Shown here: piece by piece, positions 2,198 to 15,431 of the stretch
How the letters are laid out: each line of letters starts with the position of its first letter
Position numbering within the stretch: the stretch's first letter is position 1
From: a virus
Lineage: Duplodnaviria > Heunggongvirae > Uroviricota > Caudoviricetes
DNA: 47,909 nt
Virus record (IMG/VR): IMGVR_UViG_2718218171_000003
Coordinates: 1-47,909 of that record
Strand: one strand, 5' to 3'
Program-made: the position numbers and the translations under genes
The notes under the pieces: model-generated
The model's input: only the letters and a program-made list of their open reading frames with translations
What the model was told of the DNA's origin: nothing
The model's database searches: none

Positions 2198-5100
2198 TTA
2201 TCTCGTAAAGCTAGTTTTATGACTTCCTGTTAGCTGACTGTCTTCATAATAAAATGCTCCACTAAACTCCTGTCGACCATAATGATGACTTGATGTGAGT
2301 GAGCCCCCTATAACGCCCTTTTCACCTAATAATGTCCAAACGATTTCAAAACCATTGTCCCTTAACATTGTTAAAAATGGTTCTTTTTTAACAAGTAGAT
2401 GCGGCTTTGAAGCATATACAGCTTCAGCTGCAAAGCAAACCATAGTTCCATTTTCATCATTGAAGCTACCCTCTACTTCCCCACTTTTTAATCCCATCTT
2501 TTCAAAGATTAAGTTACTAGGCTTCAAAAAATTCAAAGTTTCTATTTTTGATTTGTCGAACTCCTCTTCCCACAAATAATTAATCGAAGTGACACTAACA
2601 TCAGCAATCTTAGCTCCAGACTCCCGGTCTGTTACCGAAGTCCAGTCAGATCCACCATAATAATCTGATTTAAAAGACTTAAATGCTTCGGACCAATAGT
2701 ACTCCCTATTAAATAATTGGTATCTATCAGTACATTCCGGCATCCACCTGCCCATAAAGTCTTGAGCTATTGCCCAATATCTAAAATTTTCAAATTCTTC
2801 AACTTTAACGATATAACTTCTGATCTGATACCAAACCTCTTTTCGTGGGTGCCCCCAATCATCGTTTCCAATAATTTTTGGTTCTTTCCATGATGGATAA
2901 CTTTCTAATACTATCCATTCATCACCATTATCATCTTTAACTTCAATAAAAGCATATGAATTAGTTATAGTAGTAGAACTTTTAACCCAGTCTTCATTAG
3001 AGCAAGTCCAATCAAACACTTCATCATTAAGCCACCACATTTCTTTATTGCTTATTTTTTTCGTTCCAGTTTCTTTAAGTAAGATAGTGGGATCTATATC
3101 TCTTACGTAAGGCTCCCATGGCCCTTGGTATGGATTTTCCTTTCGTTCGTCACCATAACCTTCAAAACGAGTAAAATTATCGGCTAGCCTTGCCATGTAT
3201 TCATAATAAGCAATCCATTGGTATTTTTTACCAATCCGTTCTTGGAATGCCTCTCTACGTCCACGTCCAGTTCCTATTTGTTGGTCAAAATTACCATGCT
3301 TCTCCGGATCCCAACCAAGCTCTATAACACGATTGAATATAAATTGTTGAGCTAGTCGAAGATCAAAGTGTTTATCAGTTTCCAGCAGATTATTATTATG
3401 ATCCAGGTATGGCTCTATTTCATTTTCAAACTCACTTAACAGATCGTATGACAATGAATTCTTAAATAATTTCTTGCTCGCCTTTATTTCTTCCTGTGCT
3501 TTTCTACCGACCACACGACCAAATTTAATTCCTTCGCATTTATCATCATAAATGAAAGGATCTGTGGCATCATACAAATCTTTTTGTTGATCAGTTAGTT
3601 TACATTTGAAAGTTTTAAAAACTTGCTTACGGTCAACAGGGGTTTCATTAAACTTGCAACCAGACCAATCAGAATGATTATAATTTGTACCAATAGTATA
3701 TCGTGAAAAGTCACCACCTTCCATAATCGAGCTCCAGAGTTCCCGATAAGGTTCTTTATCATAAAGGGACTCTAGTTCCTCTTTTGAAGGAATCTTGTCA
3801 GGCCAAATGCTGTTGTAGGGTGGTCTAGTCTTGGATAATTCAATGCTTTCAAGTTCCAATCCAAGATGATTAGCAAATTCAATAATCTCTCTAGCATAAT
3901 CTCTAAGTAATATATTTGGATACACATACTCAGAACAAAATACCTTTTGGTAAACAGTTTCGGCTAAATATTTTAGTTCTTTAATATTATCAGTTCGCAA
4001 TGTACAGCCTAATGCAACTGCAAATATTCTTTCCCAAACGTAAGGATCATTTACACCATAAAACTTATCAATTATTTTTCTCAATACAGGAATTCTTGGC
4101 TCGAGTAAACTCACTAAAGCCTTGGTTGAGCAATCTCGAAGTTCTCGGTTACTAGAAGTTAAAAACCAGCATAAACTAGTTGCAACTAGCTCGATTGACT
4201 CATCCGAAACAAAGCTTTTATCTGTTCTGGCCCATGCCCAATCGATTAGATGCCTAAAAGCTGAGTCTTCACTATATTTATATTTAAGTTCTGTAGTCCA
4301 AAACGAATCTCGATTTGCCAAAGAATAATCTTTTAGCCAATCATGCAAGAAATTAGCATTAAAGGGATGGTCAACTAAACCTGAAATAGAGATCACTGCC
4401 TCGAGGAAATGATCAAAACTATCTTTAAATTTAAAAACATGTTCATTGATGAAAGGTCTAATTTTTTCGAAATCAATAGCCTTAATATCTCGCCATATCA
4501 AGCTATCAATAAAGGCTTCTAGTAATTTAAGATTATTGCTAAACTCCGGCAGAAATTCATAAAGCTCTTTTTCATACCTTTCTGGCAATTGAATAGACAG
4601 CGCCTCTACTATTCCCGATTTTATATAAAAATCACATTCATCATGAAAATATTTTTTCAGACGACCATCAGGCTTAAATTCACTTTCGATATTTTCAACA
4701 TCATTTAATAAAAAATTAACAGTTAAATGATCATCAAACCTTTCAAAAGCCACATAAACTACTTCCTCAGTAGAATTATCATCATTTCTCACTATGCCTT
4801 TAGTCAATAATCCTTCGTCAATCAAGGCGCTGAGGAAGGTTTTATCAGCAACATAATCATTAACTACAGATTGAACCACTGAGTGAGCATCTTTAAGTGA
4901 AATACTATTACGACCAATCTCTAATTTGAATTTTATGATTTCATTGAGAGCATCTTTAACAAGAGGAAAACTGGGATCGAATGCATATTTTCTTGGCGAT
5001 GCTAATGATTTATTTACCCCTTCCACTAAAAAGTTAAAAATATTTGAAATCCCATTAAATCCAACAGGCACTTTGGTTAAACCATTTTTCTTAATGCCTT

Positions 5101-6652
5101 CACACAATAACTTAAGAAATAGAGGGTTTTTAAACTCTGGATTAAGGTTAGGTGATGAAGGCCTCTCTATATTGTAATAATCATAAAATAGACTAACCGC
5201 TTCCAACTCAACGCTCTGAAATCCAATATGTTCATGAATTTCAAAATTATTTCGCTCAACATTCTCATGTGAAATTGTTACATTTCTATATGTTGTTCTG
5301 ACTGACATTATCAGACCAAGCCATTCAAAGCCTCTGATTTCATCGACAAAACTGTTAATATTGTCATTCCAGAATTTATTTCCATTACCTTCATTAATAG
5401 CATCAATAAAAACTAAGACTCTTTTTCCTGTTTTTTTGCCATATAAATTCAGTTTTTCTAGGAATTCACGAGAAGTGATTTTAAGCTGTAATCTCTTGAA
5501 GATTTGTGACCATGGAGATTCATCTGAAGTAAGTTGTTGCCCTAGTATGAGTAGAGAAGGATACCCAGAAGCAATTCGATTTTTAATCACATCAGCCAGT
5601 AAATGAGACTTACCAATTCCAGCTTTTCCTTCGAGAAGTAAGAATGGGTTGTTAGCCAACTTCACTGTTGTTGAATTAATGAATGTACGTAATTCATTGC
5701 ACGCATAGTCAAGTTCCCGAAGCATTCGCAGAGTAGATGAATACTTATCACTGTAATGCTTGGTTTCACCTACTTGTTCTGATTTTTCTCGGAGTTCCCA
5801 CAATATTGATTCCGCTCCGCCAATAGCTGTCTGGCAACTAGAAACATAGTTATTAAATTTATTTATAGGGATTTCATCTAATTTAGAAAAATTAATTTCT
5901 TGATATATATCAGAAATTTCTTTTAAGGACTGGTCTATTTCAGATAATTGTGAGGAAATTACATCGCAACTATGTAATTTCTTTCCAGTGACCAGAAAAC
6001 TATCTATATGCGAATAAAATATTTTAGAAAAATTATTAGTTCTACCGAGACCATCAAATATCTCTGCTATTTCTAGCTTTACGTTGAGTTCGGGTGTGTA
6101 TCGGCCTCCCAAGTCAGCTATTGCTTGACTACTTTTCTCATTTAACCAATCATCACTCAAGTGAAAAGTTAGTTTCTCATCTATAGACCGCAAAACAAGT
6201 TTAATTTGAATAAGCTCTTCATTAATATCGAATATTTTTTCTTTATAAGTTTCTTCGATATGTAGCTTTTTTAACTTCGAACAATTATTTATTTTTAACG
6301 ACAACATCCCATAAAAAAGGCTGAGTTGTTGTTGAGTTGGGGGAGTGACGCTTGGATATTCTTTGAACTTGTCTAATAACATCTCTTTGTCAGGGAACTC
6401 TTTAAAAAGGATGTGCTCATTCAACATCTCAAACAATGGTTTAGAATGATAAAATGGAATTGCTCCACTTTCTACTGGATATGTTTCTTCAAACTCAATT
6501 GCCGTCTCTTCAATTAGTTGATATAATCTATCCACATATTTTTCTGTGGGGAATAATGCTTTCTTAATCCAACTATATCCTTCTTGAGAAATGAATTGAT
6601 CAATAAGTTTAGTTGCTACATAAGTTGCCACTGTAATTGATATGGGTTCCAT
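2198..6652 (-). CDS. NACHT/STAND-type P-loop NTPase (NLR-like), 1484 aa; candidate antiphage defence protein
   Basis: Uninterrupted 4455-nt ORF; Walker A GKAGIGKS (aa 342-349, codons 5606-5629), Walker B-like VLVFIDAINE (aa 412-421), sensor-1-like LIMSVRTT (aa 447-454), NPLFLKLL helix; N-terminal about 330 aa and C-terminal about 900 aa without assignable motifs; strongly AT-rich unlike neighbouring phage genes; RBS GGAAGA 8 nt upstream of ATG. Confidence 0.7.
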   Translation of the reverse strand: MEPISITVATYVATKLIDQFISQEGYSWIKKALFPTEKYVDRLYQLIEETAIEFEETYPVESGAIPFYHSKPLFEMLNEHILFKEFPDKEMLLDKFKEYPSVTPPTQQQLSLFYGMLSLKINNCSKLKKLHIEETYKEKIFDINEELIQIKLVLRSIDEKLTFHLSDDWLNEKSSQAIADLGGRYTPELNVKLEIAEIFDGLGRTNNFSKIFYSHIDSFLVTGKKLHSCDVISSQLSEIDQSLKEISDIYQEINFSKLDEIPINKFNNYVSSCQTAIGGAESILWELREKSEQVGETKHYSDKYSSTLRMLRELDYACNELRTFINSTTVKLANNPFLLLEGKAGIGKSHLLADVIKNRIASGYPSLLILGQQLTSDESPWSQIFKRLQLKITSREFLEKLNLYGKKTGKRVLVFIDAINEGNGNKFWNDNINSFVDEIRGFEWLGLIMSVRTTYRNVTISHENVERNNFEIHEHIGFQSVELEAVSLFYDYYNIERPSSPNLNPEFKNPLFLKLLCEGIKKNGLTKVPVGFNGISNIFNFLVEGVNKSLASPRKYAFDPSFPLVKDALNEIIKFKLEIGRNSISLKDAHSVVQSVVNDYVADKTFLSALIDEGLLTKGIVRNDDNSTEEVVYVAFERFDDHLTVNFLLNDVENIESEFKPDGRLKKYFHDECDFYIKSGIVEALSIQLPERYEKELYEFLPEFSNNLKLLEAFIDSLIWRDIKAIDFEKIRPFINEHVFKFKDSFDHFLEAVISISGLVDHPFNANFLHDWLKDYSLANRDSFWTTELKYKYSEDSAFRHLIDWAWARTDKSFVSDESIELVATSLCWFLTSSNRELRDCSTKALVSLLEPRIPVLRKIIDKFYGVNDPYVWERIFAVALGCTLRTDNIKELKYLAETVYQKVFCSEYVYPNILLRDYAREIIEFANHLGLELESIELSKTRPPYNSIWPDKIPSKEELESLYDKEPYRELWSSIMEGGDFSRYTIGTNYNHSDWSGCKFNETPVDRKQVFKTFKCKLTDQQKDLYDATDPFIYDDKCEGIKFGRVVGRKAQEEIKASKKLFKNSLSYDLLSEFENEIEPYLDHNNNLLETDKHFDLRLAQQFIFNRVIELGWDPEKHGNFDQQIGTGRGRREAFQERIGKKYQWIAYYEYMARLADNFTRFEGYGDERKENPYQGPWEPYVRDIDPTILLKETGTKKISNKEMWWLNDEVFDWTCSNEDWVKSSTTITNSYAFIEVKDDNGDEWIVLESYPSWKEPKIIGNDDWGHPRKEVWYQIRSYIVKVEEFENFRYWAIAQDFMGRWMPECTDRYQLFNREYYWSEAFKSFKSDYYGGSDWTSVTDRESGAKIADVSVTSINYLWEEEFDKSKIETLNFLKPSNLIFEKMGLKSGEVEGSFNDENGTMVCFAAEAVYASKPHLLVKKEPFLTMLRDNGFEIVWTLLGEKGVIGGSLTSSHHYGRQEFSGAFYYEDSQLTGSHKTSFTR

Positions 6653-7513: not shown

Positions 7514-8554
7514 TTATTTAGACGCAAGCGCCGCCTCAATTGCAGATAATCTTTGTCTTAATTCTGCGTTTTCTTCTTCCAGTGCTGTTATCCTGTCGTC
7601 TGACTCTCTGGCTACCTGAACAAGCAAACCTGTTACGCCTGAGTAATCAACGGTATAGTATCTTTCTCCCTCTTCTCCATCAGACCCATTGTCCCCGCTC
7701 TTGTACTTTATTGTGCTACCAACTGATTCAGGGATTGCATTAAGTGCCTCTTGCGCAATAACGCCAGCATAAGGCATACCATTAGACTTGAGACGGTATG
7801 TATATCCATTCATTAATCTGATGCGTTCAGTGGCATTGTCAATAACCTGAATATTTTCTTTAAGATCTCTGTCCGACACCTGGTCGAATGATGTTGCCTT
7901 GCATGGCCCGTTTATCTCAAGCTGATAGGTTTTATCTGGGTTCCTTTGTGCATAAAACAAAAAAAGCCCGCCATCATCCCTAATTTCATAAACAACTGGA
8001 CGACTGGAGTTTCCCCATAATAACGTCGATACACCAGAATACGCCGTACCTTGCGTGTTTAGTGTCATGGTCGAACCATGATTAGCGTATTTGATTTGTA
8101 ATGTGTCTGTGTAATCAAATTTAATAAGCGCGTTACTTCCCCGCACACCATACGACATGAGACAGTTCCCCATCTTGAGGTAACCATCACTGCCTGGAAA
8201 AATTAATGTTCCGCCGTAAAGATTACTAAAGTCCCACCAAATACCCTTTTCGCCATCTTTTACGTGTAGTCGCGCCATTGCAGCTTCATCGCCTGCAACA
8301 TTTTTTCGGGTATAAAACTCAGTATATACATCGATTTTATCGGCAGTCTTATGAATTGAACGATGTTTACCACCAAAGACAGTACCAGTTGTCGGCAAAG
8401 TACTATCTTTTTTGGTAGCATCCCAATCACCTAACACCTCGCGTTTACCATCAACATAGGATTTTGTTGCGTAGCTTCCAAGATCAGTTTTTAATTTGCT
8501 AACATCGGATTTTAGCGTTTTGATGTCATCAGGAATTACTGTCGATGTAGCCAT
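7514..8554 (-). CDS. Tail fibre-like protein with C-terminal intramolecular chaperone (peptidase S74-type) domain
   Basis: 346-aa ORF; motif SDRDLKENIQVIDNATERIRLMNGYTYRLK followed by GVIAQEALNAIPE and a terminal coiled coil ITALEEENAELRQRL, typical of self-cleaving chaperone domains of phage fibres. Confidence 0.7.
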   Translation of the reverse strand: MATSTVIPDDIKTLKSDVSKLKTDLGSYATKSYVDGKREVLGDWDATKKDSTLPTTGTVFGGKHRSIHKTADKIDVYTEFYTRKNVAGDEAAMARLHVKDGEKGIWWDFSNLYGGTLIFPGSDGYLKMGNCLMSYGVRGSNALIKFDYTDTLQIKYANHGSTMTLNTQGTAYSGVSTLLWGNSSRPVVYEIRDDGGLFLFYAQRNPDKTYQLEINGPCKATSFDQVSDRDLKENIQVIDNATERIRLMNGYTYRLKSNGMPYAGVIAQEALNAIPESVGSTIKYKSGDNGSDGEEGERYYTVDYSGVTGLLVQVARESDDRITALEEENAELRQRLSAIEAALASK

Positions 8555-8563
8555 TTTTCTTCC

Positions 8564-8845
8564 TCACATCCAGCCACGAAGTTGATGCTCAACAGCAACC
8601 GCGTATTCATCGAATAATGACGATATTTGCGAATCATTAATGATGCGCACGTTTACAAAATATCCGTCTTCCTTAACACATACCGGTTCGCCATCTTCAG
8701 TCAGTTCTCCGGTTTCTTTGTACACGTCACCTATCACGTCAATGAGAATATCATCCTGCATCGACTCGTCATCATAATAGCCAGTGCTATCCATAAAGGC
8801 CGAAAATTCGGCCCTGTCTTCAAATTTGAGTGTTAAATCTTTCAT
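8564..8845 (-). CDS. Acidic 93-aa protein, translationally coupled to stf (TAATG overlap), unknown function
   Basis: ORF start overlaps the stf stop codon by 1 nt; Asp/Glu-rich; no recognisable motif. Confidence 0.5.
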   Translation of the reverse strand: MKDLTLKFEDRAEFSAFMDSTGYYDDESMQDDILIDVIGDVYKETGELTEDGEPVCVKEDGYFVNVRIINDSQISSLFDEYAVAVEHQLRGWM

Positions 8846-11220
8846 TAGATTGACTCCCCCACCTGAGCATCAGTCAATGCCTTGTGCCATATTCTGAAAT
8901 TCCTGACATGACCAAATAAATGACGTAACCCGGCTGTAGTCTGGCCTCCAATACGGATAATTGCGGTGTTCTGAATACAGGACCATGTGGTTTTTGTTTC
9001 GCTGGATATATGCCCGTTACTTACTGAGCACGTAGACTGCTCTGACTTTACACGCATCCCCATAACCATTTTTTCAAGCGATGCGTTTTCGTTTACCCGT
9101 CTGTTAGCTCCTCCAATATCGCAATAAGGAAATCCGTCGTAATCTGTTGAACGACCGAAGCCAAGAATAATAGCCGCTCCGGTTTGATGACCGCCGGTAT
9201 CAAAAACACGTGGCGCTGCATTTGGCGTTTTATACCAGTTCTTATGTACCTCACAAAGAACCGTAAAAGGAAGATTATAAAGATTATTCTTAATTGGAAC
9301 TGTAACTATATCGCTTGCGCGGGTCGCCGCCGTCGCTCCTGATATAATAAAAGATGATACACAAGGCCCATCTTCTACTTGTGGGGTGGCCAGATAAATA
9401 TAGTCACCAGATACGGTTGCCCCGCTCTGCTTAGGAGAATACTGTATCTGAGAGCCTATTTTTAACTCCCCATCAATTGCCTGAATTGTTGCCTCTGCAA
9501 AAATCCATCCGGTAGCTTCGTCCTTTCTGACTCTCGCTGTAATCCTTGAGGCAGCACCGCCTGTCATATTAATTTCAAGCGTTTGTGTATCAATATACGC
9601 ATCACCAAGAAAAGTTGTTGCGCTACCGTCATATTTATCAAACCGGATACGCAACCTTACCTGCAGTTCTGTTTTAAAACGACATGAGGTTGTCACGTGT
9701 TTATTATCGCCTGAGACATCAACTGACTTTGTTGCAGCAATTGACGCCATATTAATGGCTGAGGTTTGCCCAATCAGAGAATCGTTGCAGACAAACTTTC
9801 CATAGGTAAAACCAAAATTATCCGTCCCTGTTTCGGGCACATCCATATTTGACGATCGCCCCCAACTGGCAGGGCTTTCCGAATTGAGCATGTAGTTTGT
9901 TCTTTGCCCCTCAATAAGCAGGCCATCACGTTCAAATCGTGGCTCGTCAATGGCAGCCTCTGTCAGCACACCAGATTTGTTAATATAGGTTGCTTTCGAT
10001 GCACGTTTAAACTTAACAATCTTGTCGCCAGGCATCGTTATTTCATCGTCACCAATAACAATTTTTTTATATGATGGCGAAAAGCCCGTAATCATATCCA
10101 GCGAATCGTTAAATGGTATCCACACATCAGGCAGCGGCTGTAAGACATATTTATACGGCTCCGCAGCCTGGCTTGCGTACTCTCTGGCTGCATCTTCGCT
10201 TGCTTTAGCTGCCGTCTGGCTTGCTGCCGATGCTTTCGCTGAGTTCGCAGCCGCTGTTTCGCTCACCTTTGCGTTGGTTTCACTGGTTTTTGCTGCTTTT
10301 TGACTGTTAGCTGATGCAGTGGCAGAAGCAGCCGCCGCGCTTGCAGAACTGGCTGCGGCACTCTCGCTTTGGGCCGCTGCATCCTGACTGCTTTTCGCCG
10401 CAGTTTCACTGGCTTTGGCATTCGTTTCGCTGGTCTTCGCTGCCGTCTGGCTGGACTTTGCGTTAGTTTCACTCGTCTTCGCAGCTTTCTGGCTGTTAGC
10501 CGCAGCAGTTGCTGATCCAGCTGCTGAAGTCGCAGAACCGGCTGCCGCGCTCTCGCTTTGGGCTGCTGCAACCTGGCTGTTTTTTGCCGCAGTTTCACTG
10601 GCTTTGGCATTCGTTTCGCTGGTTTTCGCTGCCGTCTGGCTGGACTTTGCGTTGGTTTCGCTCGTCTTTGCGGCTGTCTCGCTATTTTTCGCGTTGGTTT
10701 CTGATTTTTTGGCTGCTGTCGCGGAGTTTTCTGATGCAGTCTGTGAGGTCGCTGCCGTCTGTGCACTATTAGCTGCATTCGTTTCTGAGGTTTTCGCCGC
10801 GTTCTTCGATGATGCCGCTGCAGTTTCGGATTTCTTTGCCGCCGCTGCGCTCTGAGAGGCGGCTTCGGCGTTGCGTGCCACTTCTTCCACCATTGCCTCA
10901 AAACGACGCAATGCCTCCGGCATGACATCATCTTCCGTCATGGCACCGAGAAAATCATTCAGCGTACCTGGTCTGGAGCCTTCATAGACGGTAATGGTCC
11001 CGGCATGTGAAGGCGGAAAACCTTCAACCAGCAGGATGACGCTGTACTGGCCATGCTCAACATCCATGCTGTAACGCCCGGCTTCATCCGGATTTTCAGA
11101 GGCCACCGTGTTCACCAGTACCGTGGTGCTGTTACGCTTTGCCTTCAGTTGAATAGTGCAGTTCTGTATTGGTTTTCCCGCACCATCTTTCAGCACACCT
11201 GAGATTTTTACTGCTGCCAT
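8845..11220 (-). CDS. stf: Side tail fibre protein (Stf-like), 791 aa, lambda-like N-terminus with a repetitive shaft and a distinct C-terminal domain
   Basis: N-terminus MAVKISGVLKDG...GFPPSHAGTITVYE matches lambda Stf; ATG at 11220 with GGAG RBS; Ala/Ser/Thr/Lys-rich repeats; C-terminus ends GHVRNFRIWHKALTDAQVGE (lectin/LamG-like signature, inferred). Confidence 0.85.
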   Translation of the reverse strand: MAAVKISGVLKDGAGKPIQNCTIQLKAKRNSTTVLVNTVASENPDEAGRYSMDVEHGQYSVILLVEGFPPSHAGTITVYEGSRPGTLNDFLGAMTEDDVMPEALRRFEAMVEEVARNAEAASQSAAAAKKSETAAASSKNAAKTSETNAANSAQTAATSQTASENSATAAKKSETNAKNSETAAKTSETNAKSSQTAAKTSETNAKASETAAKNSQVAAAQSESAAAGSATSAAGSATAAANSQKAAKTSETNAKSSQTAAKTSETNAKASETAAKSSQDAAAQSESAAASSASAAAASATASANSQKAAKTSETNAKVSETAAANSAKASAASQTAAKASEDAAREYASQAAEPYKYVLQPLPDVWIPFNDSLDMITGFSPSYKKIVIGDDEITMPGDKIVKFKRASKATYINKSGVLTEAAIDEPRFERDGLLIEGQRTNYMLNSESPASWGRSSNMDVPETGTDNFGFTYGKFVCNDSLIGQTSAINMASIAATKSVDVSGDNKHVTTSCRFKTELQVRLRIRFDKYDGSATTFLGDAYIDTQTLEINMTGGAASRITARVRKDEATGWIFAEATIQAIDGELKIGSQIQYSPKQSGATVSGDYIYLATPQVEDGPCVSSFIISGATAATRASDIVTVPIKNNLYNLPFTVLCEVHKNWYKTPNAAPRVFDTGGHQTGAAIILGFGRSTDYDGFPYCDIGGANRRVNENASLEKMVMGMRVKSEQSTCSVSNGHISSETKTTWSCIQNTAIIRIGGQTTAGLRHLFGHVRNFRIWHKALTDAQVGESI
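10180..10668. repeat. In-frame tandem repeats inside stf (unit about 189 bp = 63 aa, two full copies plus a partial third)
   Basis: Protein repeats KTSETNAKSSQTAAKTSETNAKASETAAK...ANSQKAA at aa 187-249 and 250-312; near-identical DNA segments about 189 nt apart. Confidence 0.7.
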
Positions 11221-11229
11221 ATCCACTCC

Positions 11230-11284: not shown

Positions 11285-11884
11285 TCAGAATTTATAACCG
11301 ACACCCACGATGAAACCGTCAGTGCGCCAGTCACCACTGCCGGAGCCTTCATAAGCAATATCAATGGCCACGGATTCGGTCGGGTTAAACTGCACGCCAG
11401 CCCCCCACGCCAGAGACGTGTTGCTGTGGCGACCGTCATCACTTCCAGTCAGCACATCGTGCGTTTTCCCCTTGCTGTCAGTTACGCGGAGATAATCCCC
11501 GGAGAACGTTGAAACACGGCTGTAAGCCACACCTGCCATCGCATAAGCACTGAACCATTCATTCACGCGTACAGACGGCCCCGCCATCATGCTGAACCAG
11601 CGGTTACGCACTGAATCTTCATGCCAGCGGGTATCGCTGTAATGCGTTTTTTGCTCATCTTTGGCATTGGCATAACTGAATGACGTCACCAGCCCCAGCG
11701 TGTCCGTAAATTCATAACGGTATTTCACGTTAATGCCCTTCAGGTCATCGTTGCCGGGCATATCAGTATGGGTCTGAAGATACCCGGCGCTTAGTGTGGA
11801 CTGATGCTCTGCTGCGCTCGCTGGCGTACCAGCAGCAACCAGCCAGACTACTGCGGACAGAATAACAGCACATAATTTACGCAT
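11285..11884 (-). CDS. lom: Outer membrane protein Lom (Ail/Lom family)
   Basis: 199-aa ORF with signal peptide and beta-barrel-type sequence ending GFIVGVGYKF; position after J as in lambda. Confidence 0.9.
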   Translation of the reverse strand: MRKLCAVILSAVVWLVAAGTPASAAEHQSTLSAGYLQTHTDMPGNDDLKGINVKYRYEFTDTLGLVTSFSYANAKDEQKTHYSDTRWHEDSVRNRWFSMMAGPSVRVNEWFSAYAMAGVAYSRVSTFSGDYLRVTDSKGKTHDVLTGSDDGRHSNTSLAWGAGVQFNPTESVAIDIAYEGSGSGDWRTDGFIVGVGYKF

Positions 11885-11951: not shown

Positions 11952-14900
11952 TCAGCTGATACTGATGCCTGCGGTGGCTTTCTTCATCACCACAACCAGC
12001 AAATCGCTGATACTTGCTGTGGGATACCAGTCATTTACCAGCCATGCTGACACCGAAAACTCCAGCGTCATGTGACCGTGACCGGCAGGCATATCAATAA
12101 CGCCACTGTAAATCAGCGTATTATCCAGCGCGGTACGGTTATAAATTTCAGCACCGTTTTTCCGCACTATCAGACGGCATGAGGAGTAAATATCAGTATG
12201 CTCTCTCTCATGTTTAGCGCCGCTGAATGCCACCGCCGGAATAACAATCTGCCGGTCAAACGGCTGATCGTCATAAATCCTGACGGTAATGGTCCCTGAT
12301 GGCCACCGTTCCGGTGCACGGGAGTCCCGGGGGAAAGCTTTGCCCACTGTTTTAACGAGATCGCCTTCAATCTGGTTCGCGGACAGTTTTCCCAGAACCC
12401 GGCAGTTCTCGTTAATCGTGACGTTGTTGAGCGTCCCGGAGTTCGCATTCACGTTACCGCTGATATCGGCATTTTTCGCCGTCAGCCGCCCGTCCGGTGT
12501 CAGGGAAAATGCCGGAGGATTACCGCCGCTGGTAATGGTGGGAGCCGTCAGATATTTCAGGAACACTTCGTTCATGAATATCTGATCGCCCTGCCCAACA
12601 AACATCGGCTTTGTGTTGCCATTCGCAGGATTAATCATCGCAATCCTGTCTGCCGCCAGCAGCACCTGACTCTGCATGCCGTCAGGGGTGTTTTCAATAC
12701 CGGCACCAATACCCGCGATATAAAGGCGTCCGTCCTGCATCTGCTGCAGCTTCACAGCCCACATGCTGTTCAGGTTATTATTTGTATCAACCTGAACCTT
12801 CTGTATCTGCTGGATCGCTGCACTCTGGTCTTCCAGTTTCTTATTGACGGTCTGCGTGATTTCATTACTGACATCCGTGATGGACGTTCTGATTTCCGCC
12901 AGGTCAGGCGCAAGCTGACCGTTATCAATCTGCGTCCACAACTCCTGAGCCAGATGGGTTTTCCCTATCTCTCCTTTGAAAAAATCCAGATAGCCGGATG
13001 CATCATCACTCGGCTGGCCAACAGCCTCCACGAATGCCGATTTGCCAACGGTGTTCACACTGCGGATGTAAAAATAATAATCATGGCCCGGCTTGATATT
13101 GATACTGGCAGCTATCCAGTACAGCGCCGTGCCAAGATAGCGGGCTGTGGTTTCAACCTGCCTGATATCCGCAATCCGCTTTTCCGAGAACCAGAACTCA
13201 AACTGTACCGTCGGATCATAAACGGCAAGATACGGCGTGGCGGTTATCTGAAAATAGCCCGGCGTCAGCTCAATCCGCGACGGCGCTGCCGGTGCGGCAA
13301 TCCGGAACGATACCGATGCCGGATCGCCCTGCTGCCCCCAGGCATTTGCCGCCCGGACTGTCAGCCTGTAGTTTCCCAGCGCCAGTTGCGTGAAGCGGTA
13401 TGTGGTTTCCGTCGTCCTGGCCGTGCTGACCAGCCGCTCACTGCCGTCATCCGCTGCCACGGTCAGACGAAGCATAAAGCTCACGCCCTTCACCACCTTC
13501 GGCGTGTCCCATCGCGCCAGCACCTGATATTCCCCGCTGTCTGCGGTGACTTCGGCGGTCAGGTGCTGCACCGCTGGCGGCGTGACACCATTCACCGTGC
13601 CGCTCTGGTCGCCGTCAAAGTGCGCCCCGTTATCCACGATGGCCTCTTTCTCCGGCACATGCTGCACGGCGGTGATGGCATACGTGCCGTCGTCGTTCTC
13701 ACGGATACTCACGCAGCGGAACAGTCGCTGGCGCAGCGTCGGCAGCTTCAGCCCCCATACGCTGTATTCAGCAACACCGCCAGGAACACGGCTCACTTTT
13801 ACCTTCACGCCGTCGGTGACGGACTGAACCTCCACGCTGACCGGATTCCCCTGTCCGTCAACCAGGCTTATCAGCGTGATGCCGGAGGATGGCAGCGTGA
13901 TTTCACGGTCGAGCGTCAGCGTCCGCGTCTGGCTGTTCACCGCCAGCACGCGCCCGCCGATGCTGATACCCGCATAGTCATCATCACAGATTTCAATGAC
14001 ATCGCCCGGTACATGGCGAAGCCCTTCGGCACCCACGCTGAAGTCCACGGTCTGCGTTTCCAGCAGCTCCGTTTTAATCAGCCACAGCCCGGCGCGGTGT
14101 GCCTGCCCCCGGCTGGTACAGCCAAAGGCATCCATCTTCGTGACGTTACGACCGTAACGGGCAATGGCCTGCGTATCTTCAACAAGCTCTGTCGCCGTCT
14201 CCCAGCCGTTATCCGGGTCAATCCAGTTCACCTCAACGGCATTATGGCGGTCCTTCAGGGCGCTGAAGCTGTAGCGGAACGGCGCGCCATCATCCGGCAT
14301 CACCACATTACTGCGGTTATAGGTCCACACCTTATCCGACGGTCGGTCCTGCACGAACGTCAGCGTCTGCCCGTTCCATACCGGCATACAGCGCATCGCC
14401 GAGCAGAAATCACTGAGCACATCCCACGCCTTGCGCTGTGTGGTCAGGTACGCATTACAGGTGATGCGCGGCTCCGTGCCACCAAAGCCATCCGGCACCG
14501 ACTGGTCGCAATACTGGCCGATGACATACAGCGCCCATTTGTCCACATCCACCGCACCAAGACGTTTCCCCATGCCGTAGCGCGGATGGGTCAGCATATC
14601 CCACAGACACCAGGCCATGTTGTTGCTGTATGCCGGTTTAAACGTTCCGTCCCAGATACCGCTGTATTGCCGCGTCTGCGGGTTATAGTTCGACGGCACC
14701 TGCAGAATACGCCCGCGCAGATGATAATTACGGCTCACCTGCTGGCTGCCGAACTGCTCCGAATCCACCTGTACGCCGACCAGTGCCGTGTTCGGGTAGC
14801 ACTGTTTCACATCGATGATTTCGGTGTATGACGACCAGAGCGTTTTGTTCTGCAGCTGGTCTGTGGTGCTGTCCGGCGTCATCCTGCGCATCCGGATATT

Positions 14901-15431
14901 AAACGGGCGCGGCGGCAGGTTATCCACCACCACCGAGGCCAGATACTGCGAGGTGGTTTTGCCTTTAATGGTGATATCTTTTTCCGTCACCCAGCCACCG
15001 TTACGCTGTATCTGAACCAGCAGACGGACTTCCGACGGATTCCGGTCCCCCTTTGAGGTGGTTTCCACCAGTGCCTGCACACCGAAGGTAAAGCGCAGTC
15101 GGTCGATGTTTGCCGACGTGATGGTGCGGGTGATCGGCGTGTCGTATTTCACTTCCGTACCCAGCACCGTCTCGGAGCCGGAGGATTCAAATCCCTCCGG
15201 CGGAGTCTGCTCCTGCTCACCAGCCCGGAACACCACCGTGACACCGGCGATGTTGGTATTCCCCTCACTGTCCAGCACCGGCGTACTGTTCAGCAGCACG
15301 CTTTTTAATCCATCCACCGGACCTTCAATCGGCCCTTCACTGATGGCATCAATCACACTCAGCAACTGCGTGGATTTCAGGTTGTCCTTCGCTTCGCGCG
15401 GGGTATGCCCCTTACTGCTGCCTTTACCCAT
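11952..15431 (-). CDS. J: Tail tip host-specificity protein J (1159-aa variant)
   Basis: N-terminus [54 protein letters not shown] as in lambda J; position and size. Confidence 0.95.

Follow-up and report, generated by a model that had tools for sequence, protein, structure and literature searches.

Among the side tail fibres of lambda-type phages, one of the closest described counterparts of the protein studied here is gpStf of Ur-lambda (collar in PDB 9e7m/9mgh), in which residues 102-393 have been modelled with AlphaFold3 as a proximal trimeric coiled coil, while cryo-EM and cryo-ET revealed a rigid proximal rod and a trimeric bundle adjoining the collar (PMC12617516). A more distant point of comparison is DpK2 of the Klebsiella phage RAD2 (PDB 7LZJ), a tailspike with a beta-helix enzyme domain, whose N-terminal domain has been called an extended triple helical bundle but is unmodelled at the atomic level over residues 1-190 (PMC8552709). 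Inside this unmodelled part, at aa 130-172, we find a short run of heptads (AKTSEDNAKSSENAAKNSE) similar to those described below; a 63-aa duplication is absent from DpK2.

We studied a stretch of viral DNA of 47,909 nucleotides (IMG/VR record IMGVR_UViG_2718218171_000003, in the following "the window"), which carries a conspicuous tandem repeat in its side tail fibre gene, stf. The repeat is very probably an old in-frame duplication of nine heptads in the proximal coiled-coil rod of a lambda-type Stf. The gene, its domains and its neighbours are arranged as follows:

7514..8554, minus strand: second tail fibre protein, 346 aa, with a C-terminal intramolecular chaperone domain (PF13884, phrog_4563)
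8564..8845, minus strand: 93-aa ORF, phrog_1361 (function unknown), directly downstream of stf
8845..11226, minus strand: stf, side tail fibre gene, 793 aa, with a GTG start and an ATG two codons in (ORF list)
8848..10170, minus strand: C-terminal module of Stf, aa 353-793 (NF048003, AF2, Foldseek)
10171..10905, minus strand: continuous heptad array, aa 108-352, the predicted proximal coiled-coil shaft (register, per-position composition)
10936..11214, minus strand: N-terminal collar (anchor) domain, aa 5-97 (phmmer and Foldseek against PDB 9e7m)
11285..11884, minus strand: lom (Ail/Lom outer membrane protein; PF06316, 420.9 bits), upstream of stf as in lambda
11952..15431, minus strand: 1159-aa ORF preceding lom, a candidate for J (central tail fibre / tip attachment protein)

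A preliminary description of this DNA had taken the gene for a side tail fibre gene of the lambda type, and both its product and its surroundings agree with that assignment. PF08400 (phage_tail_N) matches aa 5-134 with 223.7 bits against a cutoff of 26.6, the phrog_1419 profile (1-793) covers the product end to end (1491 bits), and the gene follows lom, itself preceded by an ORF where J would be expected; all three lie on the minus strand, in the order of a lambdoid tail module and of Ur-lambda. The 1159-aa ORF is a candidate J by its position, the corresponding gene being annotated gpJ/TipJ in related loci. The collar domain matches the Ur-lambda tail tip 'Tail fiber protein' in PDB 9e7m (phmmer E=6.8e-49; Foldseek 88% identity, TMt 0.76) and, as in Ur-lambda, it is followed by a linker and a long Ala/Ser-rich heptad array. 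BLASTP against lambda Stf gave 58% identity over aa 7-331, with the shaft heptads in the same register. The array is, on this comparison, evidently a homologue of the trimeric coiled coil in the proximal part of Ur-lambda gpStf, and it would by analogy take up a trimeric coiled-coil state in the present protein as well.

The differences from lambda concern the length of the shaft and everything beyond it. There are about 35 heptads here and about 41 in lambda, and the clean nine-heptad tandem duplication of the window is lacking in lambda. Beyond aa ~331 no similarity to lambda Stf, with its gp37-like distal domain (Tfa-assembled, OmpC binding), was found, and tfa is replaced downstream by the phrog_1361 ORF and an S74-domain fibre gene. 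Indeed, the 346-aa second tail fibre protein matches phrog_4563 over its full length and carries PF13884 (Peptidase_S74) at aa 227-278 (E=1.6e-12), and the gene order with the 93-aa ORF 3' of stf matches that of related phage and E. coli loci. The distal part of Stf itself is predicted to be a lectin/CBM-like beta-sandwich with a GTA-spike-fibre-like domain: NF048003 (GTA_spike_fiber) matches aa 437-637 with 50.5 bits against a cutoff of 36, the AF2 monomer has a confident beta-sandwich at aa ~445-620 (pLDDT 78-93 over aa 451-610), and Foldseek matches include the tail fibres of phages Pa193 and E217, CBM4/CBM35 and lectins. The repeats therefore lie between the collar and a distinct C-terminal module, as the preliminary description had it. 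As a full-length model the AF2 monomer is poor (mean pLDDT 49.8, a hairpin in the rod, the last 170 residues poorly folded), and it was used only for secondary structure and for the domain at aa 445-620.

The main structural point, absent from the preliminary description, is that heptads run without a break through the whole region. The base period of this array is 7 residues, with about 35 unbroken heptads of the form [A/N]-A-x-x-S-x-x, in which Ala occupies position 2 in 30 of 35 and Ser position 5 in 32 of 35; the 63-aa unit of the repeat equals exactly nine of these heptads. Accordingly, the self-identity of the array at the protein level is 0.46 at a lag of 7 residues and 0.11-0.20 at lags 1-6 and 8. 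The heptad register is kept in diverged homologues, including lambda and Stf proteins of 1072-1117 aa.

A composition so rich in Ala, Ser, Thr and Lys could also belong to a flexible, disordered low-complexity linker, in which the 7-residue period would be a relic of duplication. The sheer bias of the array (88 Ala and 46 Ser in 260 residues), its lack of bulky hydrophobic core residues and the low AF2 confidence within it are in favour of such a linker. A relic, however, does not account for a register that runs unbroken through some 35 heptads across diverged homologues, nor for natural length variants that are mostly multiples of 7 residues; moreover, AF2 predicts helix along the whole array (98-232 and 251-353), and the corresponding part of Ur-lambda is the rigid rod and trimeric bundle seen by cryo-EM and cryo-ET (PMC12617516). 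We thus regard a disordered linker as improbable and the coiled-coil rod as the preferred reading. Two observations count against the rod: Ala at 'a' together with Ser at 'd' makes a non-canonical hydrophobic core, and the AF2 monomer folds the array back into a hairpin at low confidence (pLDDT 37-69).

Within this array the tandem repeat occupies the following positions:

10486..10674, minus strand: repeat unit 1, aa 185-247, nine heptads (Tandem Repeats Finder, in-frame comparison)
10297..10485, minus strand: repeat unit 2, aa 248-310, nine heptads (comparison with unit 1)
10255..10296, minus strand: partial third unit, aa 311-324, two heptads (AAKTSET NAKVSET; per-heptad identity)

Two full units and a partial one had been claimed, and this count stands. 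Tandem Repeats Finder reports a period of 189 with 2.2 copies, 84% matches and no indels at 10267-10683 (score 603), a repeat-pair search returned a 189-nt pair at a spacing of 189 nt (10250-10438 and 10439-10627), and in the in-frame alignment the two units share 85.2% of their DNA and 88.9% of their protein sequence. The partial third unit is a remnant of two heptads, with per-heptad identities at offset 189 of 0.76 and 0.71, followed by 0.43, the background of the heptad array. Tandem periodicity is likewise evident from the DNA self-identity of gene nt 301-1080, which reaches 0.592 at a lag of 189 and 0.494 at a lag of 21, whereas a codon-shuffle control of the same segment gave 0.338 +/- 0.02 with a maximum of 0.40. 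The units are themselves composed, in frame, of 7- and 14-aa sub-repeats, in agreement with the shorter sub-repeats noted before, and Tandem Repeats Finder detects nested periods of 42 nt (10409-10495) and 21 nt (10645-10701). The interval given earlier, 10180-10668, does contain the repeat, but its phase (K187 to aa 349) is off by two residues and it also covers some 25 residues whose heptads do not repeat the unit.

Assemblers can collapse or expand repeats of such size, and many of the database homologues are partial proteins ending at contig breaks, so that an assembly artefact, or else a very recent slippage, might be suspected behind the two copies. The copies differ, however, at 28 of 189 positions, mostly synonymously (17 synonymous and 7 non-synonymous codon differences; longest exact run 38 nt), and dozens of complete E. 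coli genomes among the matches listed share exactly this two-copy layout at 99.4-99.6% identity, as do, at 98-99%, the phage isolates HannyBb, Tritos, 2G7b and PhiR63_1. Furthermore, in 81 distinct two-copy alleles the identity is 96.1% between first units and 92.1% between second units of different genes, and 84.0% between the two units within a gene. Because same-position copies across genes are closer to each other than the copies within a gene, the duplication is old. Both an artefact in the present sequence and a recent slippage are therefore most improbable, and the former was rejected.

The old duplication is, moreover, widespread, occurring in sequenced E. coli prophages by the hundred. 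Of 5426 complete genomes, 554 carry at least 80% of the stf gene, two unit markers were found in each of at least 119 IMG/VR stretches, and the two-unit state dominates every sample examined. The unit marker, AAGTCCAGCCAGACGGCAGC, is present in two copies in 74 loci and took the place of a junction pattern, GCTAACAGYCARAAAGCNGCNAARAC x3; the two-junction form of the latter matched only 18 of 118 loci, so that its null result in IMG/VR is uninformative. The PHROG 1419 proteins of the four phages named above and of E. coli prophages adjoining sitABCD are essentially the same gene (98-99.6% DNA identity, identical two-unit layout), of which the window copy is one more member, and the two-copy form is the established norm, equal in length to PHROG 1419 (793 positions).

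Departures from this norm exist. One-copy alleles were found in two complete genomes (E. coli CB209 and MSB1_4I) and in the phage isolate IdasGreatGrand, and seven distinct one-copy arrays are known from six database proteins and the IdasGreatGrand locus. The CB209 gene (2193 nt) differs at 15 sites from an in-silico one-unit derivative of the window gene, and its diagnostic sites follow the pattern 1111|2222..., which places the crossover within nt 21-50 of the unit. A hybrid unit of this kind supports an unequal homologous crossover in the identical 5' tract. Three-copy alleles were found only in short-read or metagenome contigs and are uncertain. In three such loci (L238-L240) the middle unit is a hybrid whose 3' part matches unit 1 without a difference. 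A hybrid middle unit is also the expected product of a de Bruijn-graph loop. Queries with a synthetic three-unit sequence and with the three-unit L240 revealed no three-copy allele among the top matches in the 5426 complete genomes; in complete E. coli genomes every listed match was two-unit, aligned as two overlapping pieces spanning 950 nt, and, as matches were ranked by coverage x identity, three-unit alleles of lower identity could fall outside this listing.

Other changes of length are mostly of whole heptads. Among 23 distinct variant arrays sharing both anchor motifs, 17 show length differences of -105, -63, -28, -14, -7 or +63 aa, and the stf array of strain EFF60 is shorter by 84 nt; the six distinct arrays with other lengths are represented by few sequences, and a frameshift is visible in at least one of them. 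The preliminary description had called the repeats prone to copy-number change by slippage or recombination and had proposed a comparison of copy number across related prophages. This comparison shows two units to be nearly universal and one-unit alleles to be rare: variants do exist, yet with two copies nearly universal and still 15% diverged, "prone to" is an overstatement. Recombination is supported as a source of change by the crossover signature of the hybrid units, while replication slippage, unlikely between units of 189 nt that have diverged by 15% and for variants that carry crossover hybrids, was rejected as the mechanism. Nor is this a hypervariable (contingency-type) locus, its units being only 85% identical and its one-unit alleles rare. 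A literature search for earlier descriptions of repeat-number variation in stf gave nothing specific. A comparable case outside phages is the streptococcal M protein, which likewise has tandem blocks of whole heptads in a coiled-coil rod and whose size variants arise from intragenic homologous recombination between blocks, although that protein is a dimer on the bacterial surface, has many nearly identical repeats and often varies in size. The stf gene has only two diverged units and varies rarely.

In the mechanism that we envisage for the nine-heptad duplication, three Stf chains would be anchored to the tail by their N-terminal collar domains, and their Ala/Ser-rich heptad arrays (aa ~98-353) would wind into one trimeric rod holding the lectin-like C-terminal receptor-binding module some 36-38 nm from the tail. 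With every 63-aa unit the rod would then gain about 9.3 nm, at a rise of 1.48 A per residue. The DNA of the two units is almost identical over their first four to five heptads, which may serve as a tract for unequal homologous recombination, in which the occasional loss of a unit would leave a one-copy allele with a unit1-5'/unit2-3' hybrid, and a gain, which may also occur, would leave a middle unit that is a unit2-5'/unit1-3' hybrid. Variants that survive would mostly be those of whole heptads, in which the three helices and the distal domain stay in register. The rod would change in length with every such event and adsorption may be affected, and the tuning of fibre length that the preliminary description suggested is conceivable on this basis.

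Alternatively, the heptad DNA could act mainly as a homology tract for swaps of receptor-binding modules, with the duplication as a by-product. The same N-terminus and array are indeed joined to different C-termini (QAAEPYK..., PASVPPLP... and that of locus L239), DNA similarity to non-lambdoid (siphophage) fibres begins at gene nt ~1045-1087, i.e. at the array end, and 10 of the 11 differences between the window and a related locus (L119) cluster in the array (gene nt 469-667). The junctions observed lie at or after the array end, however, with none inside the duplicated units, and module swapping does not account for why exactly nine heptads were duplicated and then retained. We consider this a possible, though not the probable, role of the array, and one that would complement the duplication of rod heptads. 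A bolder version of the latter would make the nine-heptad block a discrete length module under selection. Unequal crossover in the conserved 5' tract would convert alleles of one, two and perhaps three units into each other, and the fibre would change in ~9 nm steps, by which the reach of its lectin-like tip would be matched to how thick the O-antigen or capsule layer of the host is; this seems rather doubtful to us.

Understood as a duplication of rod heptads, the repeat is a known and ordinary kind of feature, the copies of which are rarely lost or gained. Its biological importance is small, as what is conspicuous here is the ordinary heptad architecture of a tail-fibre rod with the standard number of units. 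The natural one-unit alleles, together with the unconfirmed three-unit ones, would nevertheless offer ready material for relating fibre length to adsorption, and they mark safe in-register splice points for the engineering of chimeric fibres.

The array also gives rise to long open frames on both strands, one of which had been singled out in the preliminary description as only appearing to code:

10263..10931, minus strand: spurious alternative-frame ORF, +1 relative to stf, 222 aa (polymorphism pattern)

The ORF is present as described, and a real overlapping gene, in this or another frame, might in principle be the cause of the conservation. Yet of the 211 polymorphic sites, 130 lie at third positions of stf codons, where the ORF has its second codon positions, and when 79 alleles are each compared with the window allele and the codon differences summed, the stf frame has 1694 synonymous and 750 non-synonymous differences, the alternative frame 314 and 2123. 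The polymorphism fits the stf frame; an alternative-frame gene is next to inconceivable and was rejected. In the annotation of related genomes, the NCBI PGAP pipeline breaks the intact stf into a pseudogene fragment and a second CDS in many RefSeq genomes, a misannotation that arises because the heptad array misleads it.

The side tail fibre gene, stf, contains two tandem copies of a 63-aa unit in its own reading frame, and their arrangement is as follows:

8845-11226, minus strand: stf, an open reading frame of 793 aa that encloses the repeat region
10674-10486, minus strand: unit 1, aa 185-247, in the stf reading frame
10485-10297, minus strand: unit 2, aa 248-310, in the stf reading frame

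Tandem Repeats Finder reported a period of 189 nt at 10267-10683 (2.2 copies, 84% matches, zero indels) with nested periods of 42 and 21 nt, and a repeat search recovered the 189-nt pair together with families of 31-59-nt sub-repeats, spaced by multiples of 21 nt. Units 1 and 2 share 85.2% identity as DNA and 88.9% as protein; of the codon differences between them, 17 are synonymous and 7 non-synonymous. Likeness to the unit beyond unit 2 is limited to the next two heptads (aa 311-324). Self-identity of stf reaches 0.59 at lag 189 and 0.49 at lag 21, compared with 0.34 +/- 0.02 in codon shuffles; given this excess and the in-frame layout, the tandem 189-nt repeat of the preliminary description is correct. 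Its placement at 10180-10668 identified the right region, slightly shifted in phase and overrunning the repeated part by about 25 residues.

When the protein is written in sevens, about 35 heptads follow one another from RFEAMVE (aa 108) to AAREYAS (aa 352) with no break of register. Ala or Asn occupies position 1 of the heptad, Ala takes position 2 in 30 of the 35, and Ser takes position 5 in 32. Exactly nine heptads make up the 63-aa unit, and two make up the 14-aa sub-repeat AAKTSET NAKxSET; the basic period is therefore seven residues, with the 189-nt repeat as a duplication of higher order inside one continuous heptad array.

Our conclusion is that nine heptads have been duplicated in a predicted trimeric coiled-coil rod of the side fibre. 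The N-terminus carries the prophage tail fibre domain PF08400 (aa 5-134, 223.7 bits), and its first 93 residues match the chain 'Tail fiber protein' of the Ur-lambda tail-tip structure 9e7m (E=6.8e-49), with 88% identity in the collar (Foldseek). The heptad rod is already documented for Ur-lambda, in which residues 1-91 of gpStf form the collar domain, 92-101 a linker and 102-393 a proximal coiled coil, with a hinge and then the distal domain beyond them; beside the collar, a trimeric bundle was resolved, and each virion carries four trimeric fibres (PMC12617516). Similar heptads occur at aa 130-172 of DpK2, the depolymerase of Klebsiella phage RAD2 (7LZJ). Residues 1-190 of DpK2, which include them, were left unmodelled in that structure, and its authors report an extended triple helical bundle for the N-terminal domain, visible in the C1 map. 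An AF2 monomer of the window protein has helices at 98-232 and 251-353, at low confidence and folded back as a hairpin, an artefact that the Ur-lambda authors also met with AlphaFold3 (PMC12617516). The model is confident at aa 451-610 (pLDDT 78-93), and aa 437-637 match the GTA head spike fibre domain (NCBIfam NF048003); Foldseek matches of this C-terminal part include the tail fibres of Pseudomonas phages Pa193 and E217, CBM4, CBM35 and lectins. Lambda Stf, taken from a lambda contig (L089), is 58% identical over aa 7-331, which covers most of the array (BLASTP), and the heptads of both proteins share one register, whereas their C-terminal parts are unrelated. The window gene belongs to the lambda Stf family by collar, shaft and genomic position, but not by its distal receptor-binding part.

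Over window positions 8845-10182 (gene nt ~1045-2382) the gene has ~80-96% DNA similarity to lateral tail fibre genes of non-lambdoid siphophages (vB_EcoS_ESCO3, VogelGryff, tunus, tinuso and an unannotated 'Campylobacter phage C13' record). Since this similarity starts where the heptad array ends, the boundary between array and C-terminus is a mosaic joint.

The two-unit state is widespread. The whole gene occurs at 99.4-99.6% identity in dozens of complete E. coli genomes among the matches listed, at least 80% of it is present in 554 of 5426 complete genomes, and the isolated phages HannyBb, Tritos, 2G7b and PhiR63_1 carry it at 98-99% identity. Similarly, Stf matches the 793 positions of the PHROG 1419 profile end to end, and at least 119 IMG/VR stretches have two unit markers at unit spacing. 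By sequence comparison, then, the window gene is essentially identical to phage and prophage genes already sequenced, and its recurrence in many independent sequences led us to reject an assembly artefact as the source of the repeat. Among 81 distinct two-unit alleles, unit 1 is 96.1% and unit 2 92.1% identical between genes, whereas the two units of one gene are only 84.0% identical; the duplication is therefore older than the divergence of these alleles, and recent slippage was likewise rejected.

Other unit numbers exist. Seven distinct one-unit arrays (24 heptads) were found, six from the protein database and one from the locus of phage IdasGreatGrand, and one-unit alleles, which share the flanking modules of two-unit alleles, are also present in E. 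coli CB209 and MSB1_4I, both with complete chromosomes. At the 28 diagnostic positions where the two units of the window differ, the CB209 unit is of unit-1 type at the first four and of unit-2 type at all others, and its gene (2193 nt) has only 15 differences from a deletion derivative of the window gene made in silico with a crossover at unit nt 21. IdasGreatGrand has a like hybrid unit in a different allele background (93.7% unit identity). This hybrid pattern is the hallmark of unequal homologous crossover in a near-identical tract. Exact runs in that tract measure 29 and 38 nt in the window, and 23-122 nt in other alleles. A marker occurring once per unit revealed three-unit alleles in four contigs, L120 from IMG/VR and L238-L240 from metagenomes. 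Each of the four has the reciprocal hybrid as its middle unit, 5' of unit-2 type and 3' of unit-1 type. A loop through the common tract in a de Bruijn assembly graph would yield exactly such a hybrid; the middle unit of L238-L240 equals unit 1 without differences in its 3' part, while the private differences of L120 count against a simple loop. As such a loop could mimic the hybrid, and queries with a synthetic three-unit allele and L240 found no three-unit allele among the top matches in complete genomes, expansion to three units is plausible but unproven. One-unit alleles are thus confirmed in complete genomes, and three-unit alleles have so far been seen only in short-read contigs.

Distinct arrays by length, measured between the conserved anchors RFExMVE and PLPD[VI]W
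As in the window (256 aa): 95
-63 aa: 7
+63 aa: 3
-7 aa: 2
-14 aa: 2
-28 aa: 1
-105 aa: 2
Not a multiple of 7: 6

Each of these last six has few member sequences, and a frameshift is visible in at least one of them. Another 23 arrays form a class of their own, with a different array/C-terminal junction (PASVPPLP) and 32-34 heptads according to the starting point of the count; strain EFF60 carries a -84-nt variant, and more distant Stf proteins keep the register over ~17 to >48 heptads. From these counts, rod length in the Stf family would vary overwhelmingly by whole heptads. A Stf homologue in a MAG labelled Clostridiales (SFGJ01000067.1), with a collar 90% identical to the query, has ~17 heptads followed directly by a long collagen-like Gly-X-Y repeat, a different way to build a shaft.

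Coiled coils rise 1.48 A per residue, at which the array would be ~36-38 nm long and each unit would contribute ~9.3 nm. Rare unequal recombination alters the number of units, and register-preserving products would persist because the three helices and the distal trimer stay in phase; rod length may be tuned to the host surface. The earlier proposal, that slippage or recombination changes copy number, is supported, with the amendments that variation in unit number is rare and that the evidence backs recombination rather than slippage. Unit-number alleles are the expected behaviour of such repeats, and the natural set with different unit numbers and hybrid units may be previously undescribed.

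The repeats had also been said to make alternative-frame ORFs look coding, and polymorphism bears this out for one example:

10263-10931, frame +1 of stf: alternative-frame ORF

In 79 same-length alleles, 130 of 211 polymorphic sites fall at stf codon position 3. In the stf frame, codon differences from the window allele, summed over the alleles, come to 1694 synonymous and 750 non-synonymous, against 314 and 2123 in the alternative frame, and 10263-10931 was rejected as a gene. Open alternative frames are a by-product of the GCN/AAR-rich composition of the repeat.

The copy in NZ_CM185152.1 (6001-8382, 2382 nt) is intact, without stop or frameshift, and differs from the window by 11 substitutions. 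Ten of these fall in 200 nt of the heptad array (window 10560-10758, gene nt 469-667), some ahead of unit 1 and some within it, a clustering that looks like a patch of gene conversion and not like scattered mutation. RefSeq breaks this copy into a fragment marked as a pseudogene ('prophage tail fiber N-terminal domain', nt 7-373) and a second CDS that starts at nt 1132 ('phage head spike fiber domain-containing protein'), leaving the array unannotated. Most RefSeq rows among the complete-genome matches listed are split in this way, which looks like a systematic artefact caused by the repeat.

The neighbours of stf are:

lom: upstream neighbour of stf
candidate J, ORF of 1159 aa: upstream of stf, in the place of J in lambda; its counterpart in related loci is annotated gpJ/TipJ
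8564-8845, minus strand: ORF of 93 aa (phrog_1361, function unknown), downstream of stf
7514-8554, minus strand: tail fibre protein of 346 aa with a Peptidase_S74 intramolecular chaperone domain

Where lambda has tfa after stf, the window has the last two genes; their arrangement suggests that they and stf might form a two-protein or branched side fibre. The same trio occurs in IdasGreatGrand and CB209. An ORF of 1484 aa (2198-6652, minus strand) matches the NCBIfam equivalog of Avs2 (AVAST type 2 anti-phage; 1695 bits, cutoff 1000); its location just past the tail-fibre genes makes it a probable defence gene at the end of the prophage.

Finally, Stf N-termini 82-84% identical to the query (L089-L104 and further loci) occur in assemblies labelled Leeuwenhoekiella, Pseudomonas, Shewanella, Desulfosporosinus, Kitasatospora and others. 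The contigs that bear them mostly have ~1-2x coverage (one ~10x), several measure ~48.4-48.5 kb, and L089, the sole one translated, encodes the truncated 398-aa Stf of laboratory lambda; these loci in unrelated genome projects look like lambda DNA contamination.
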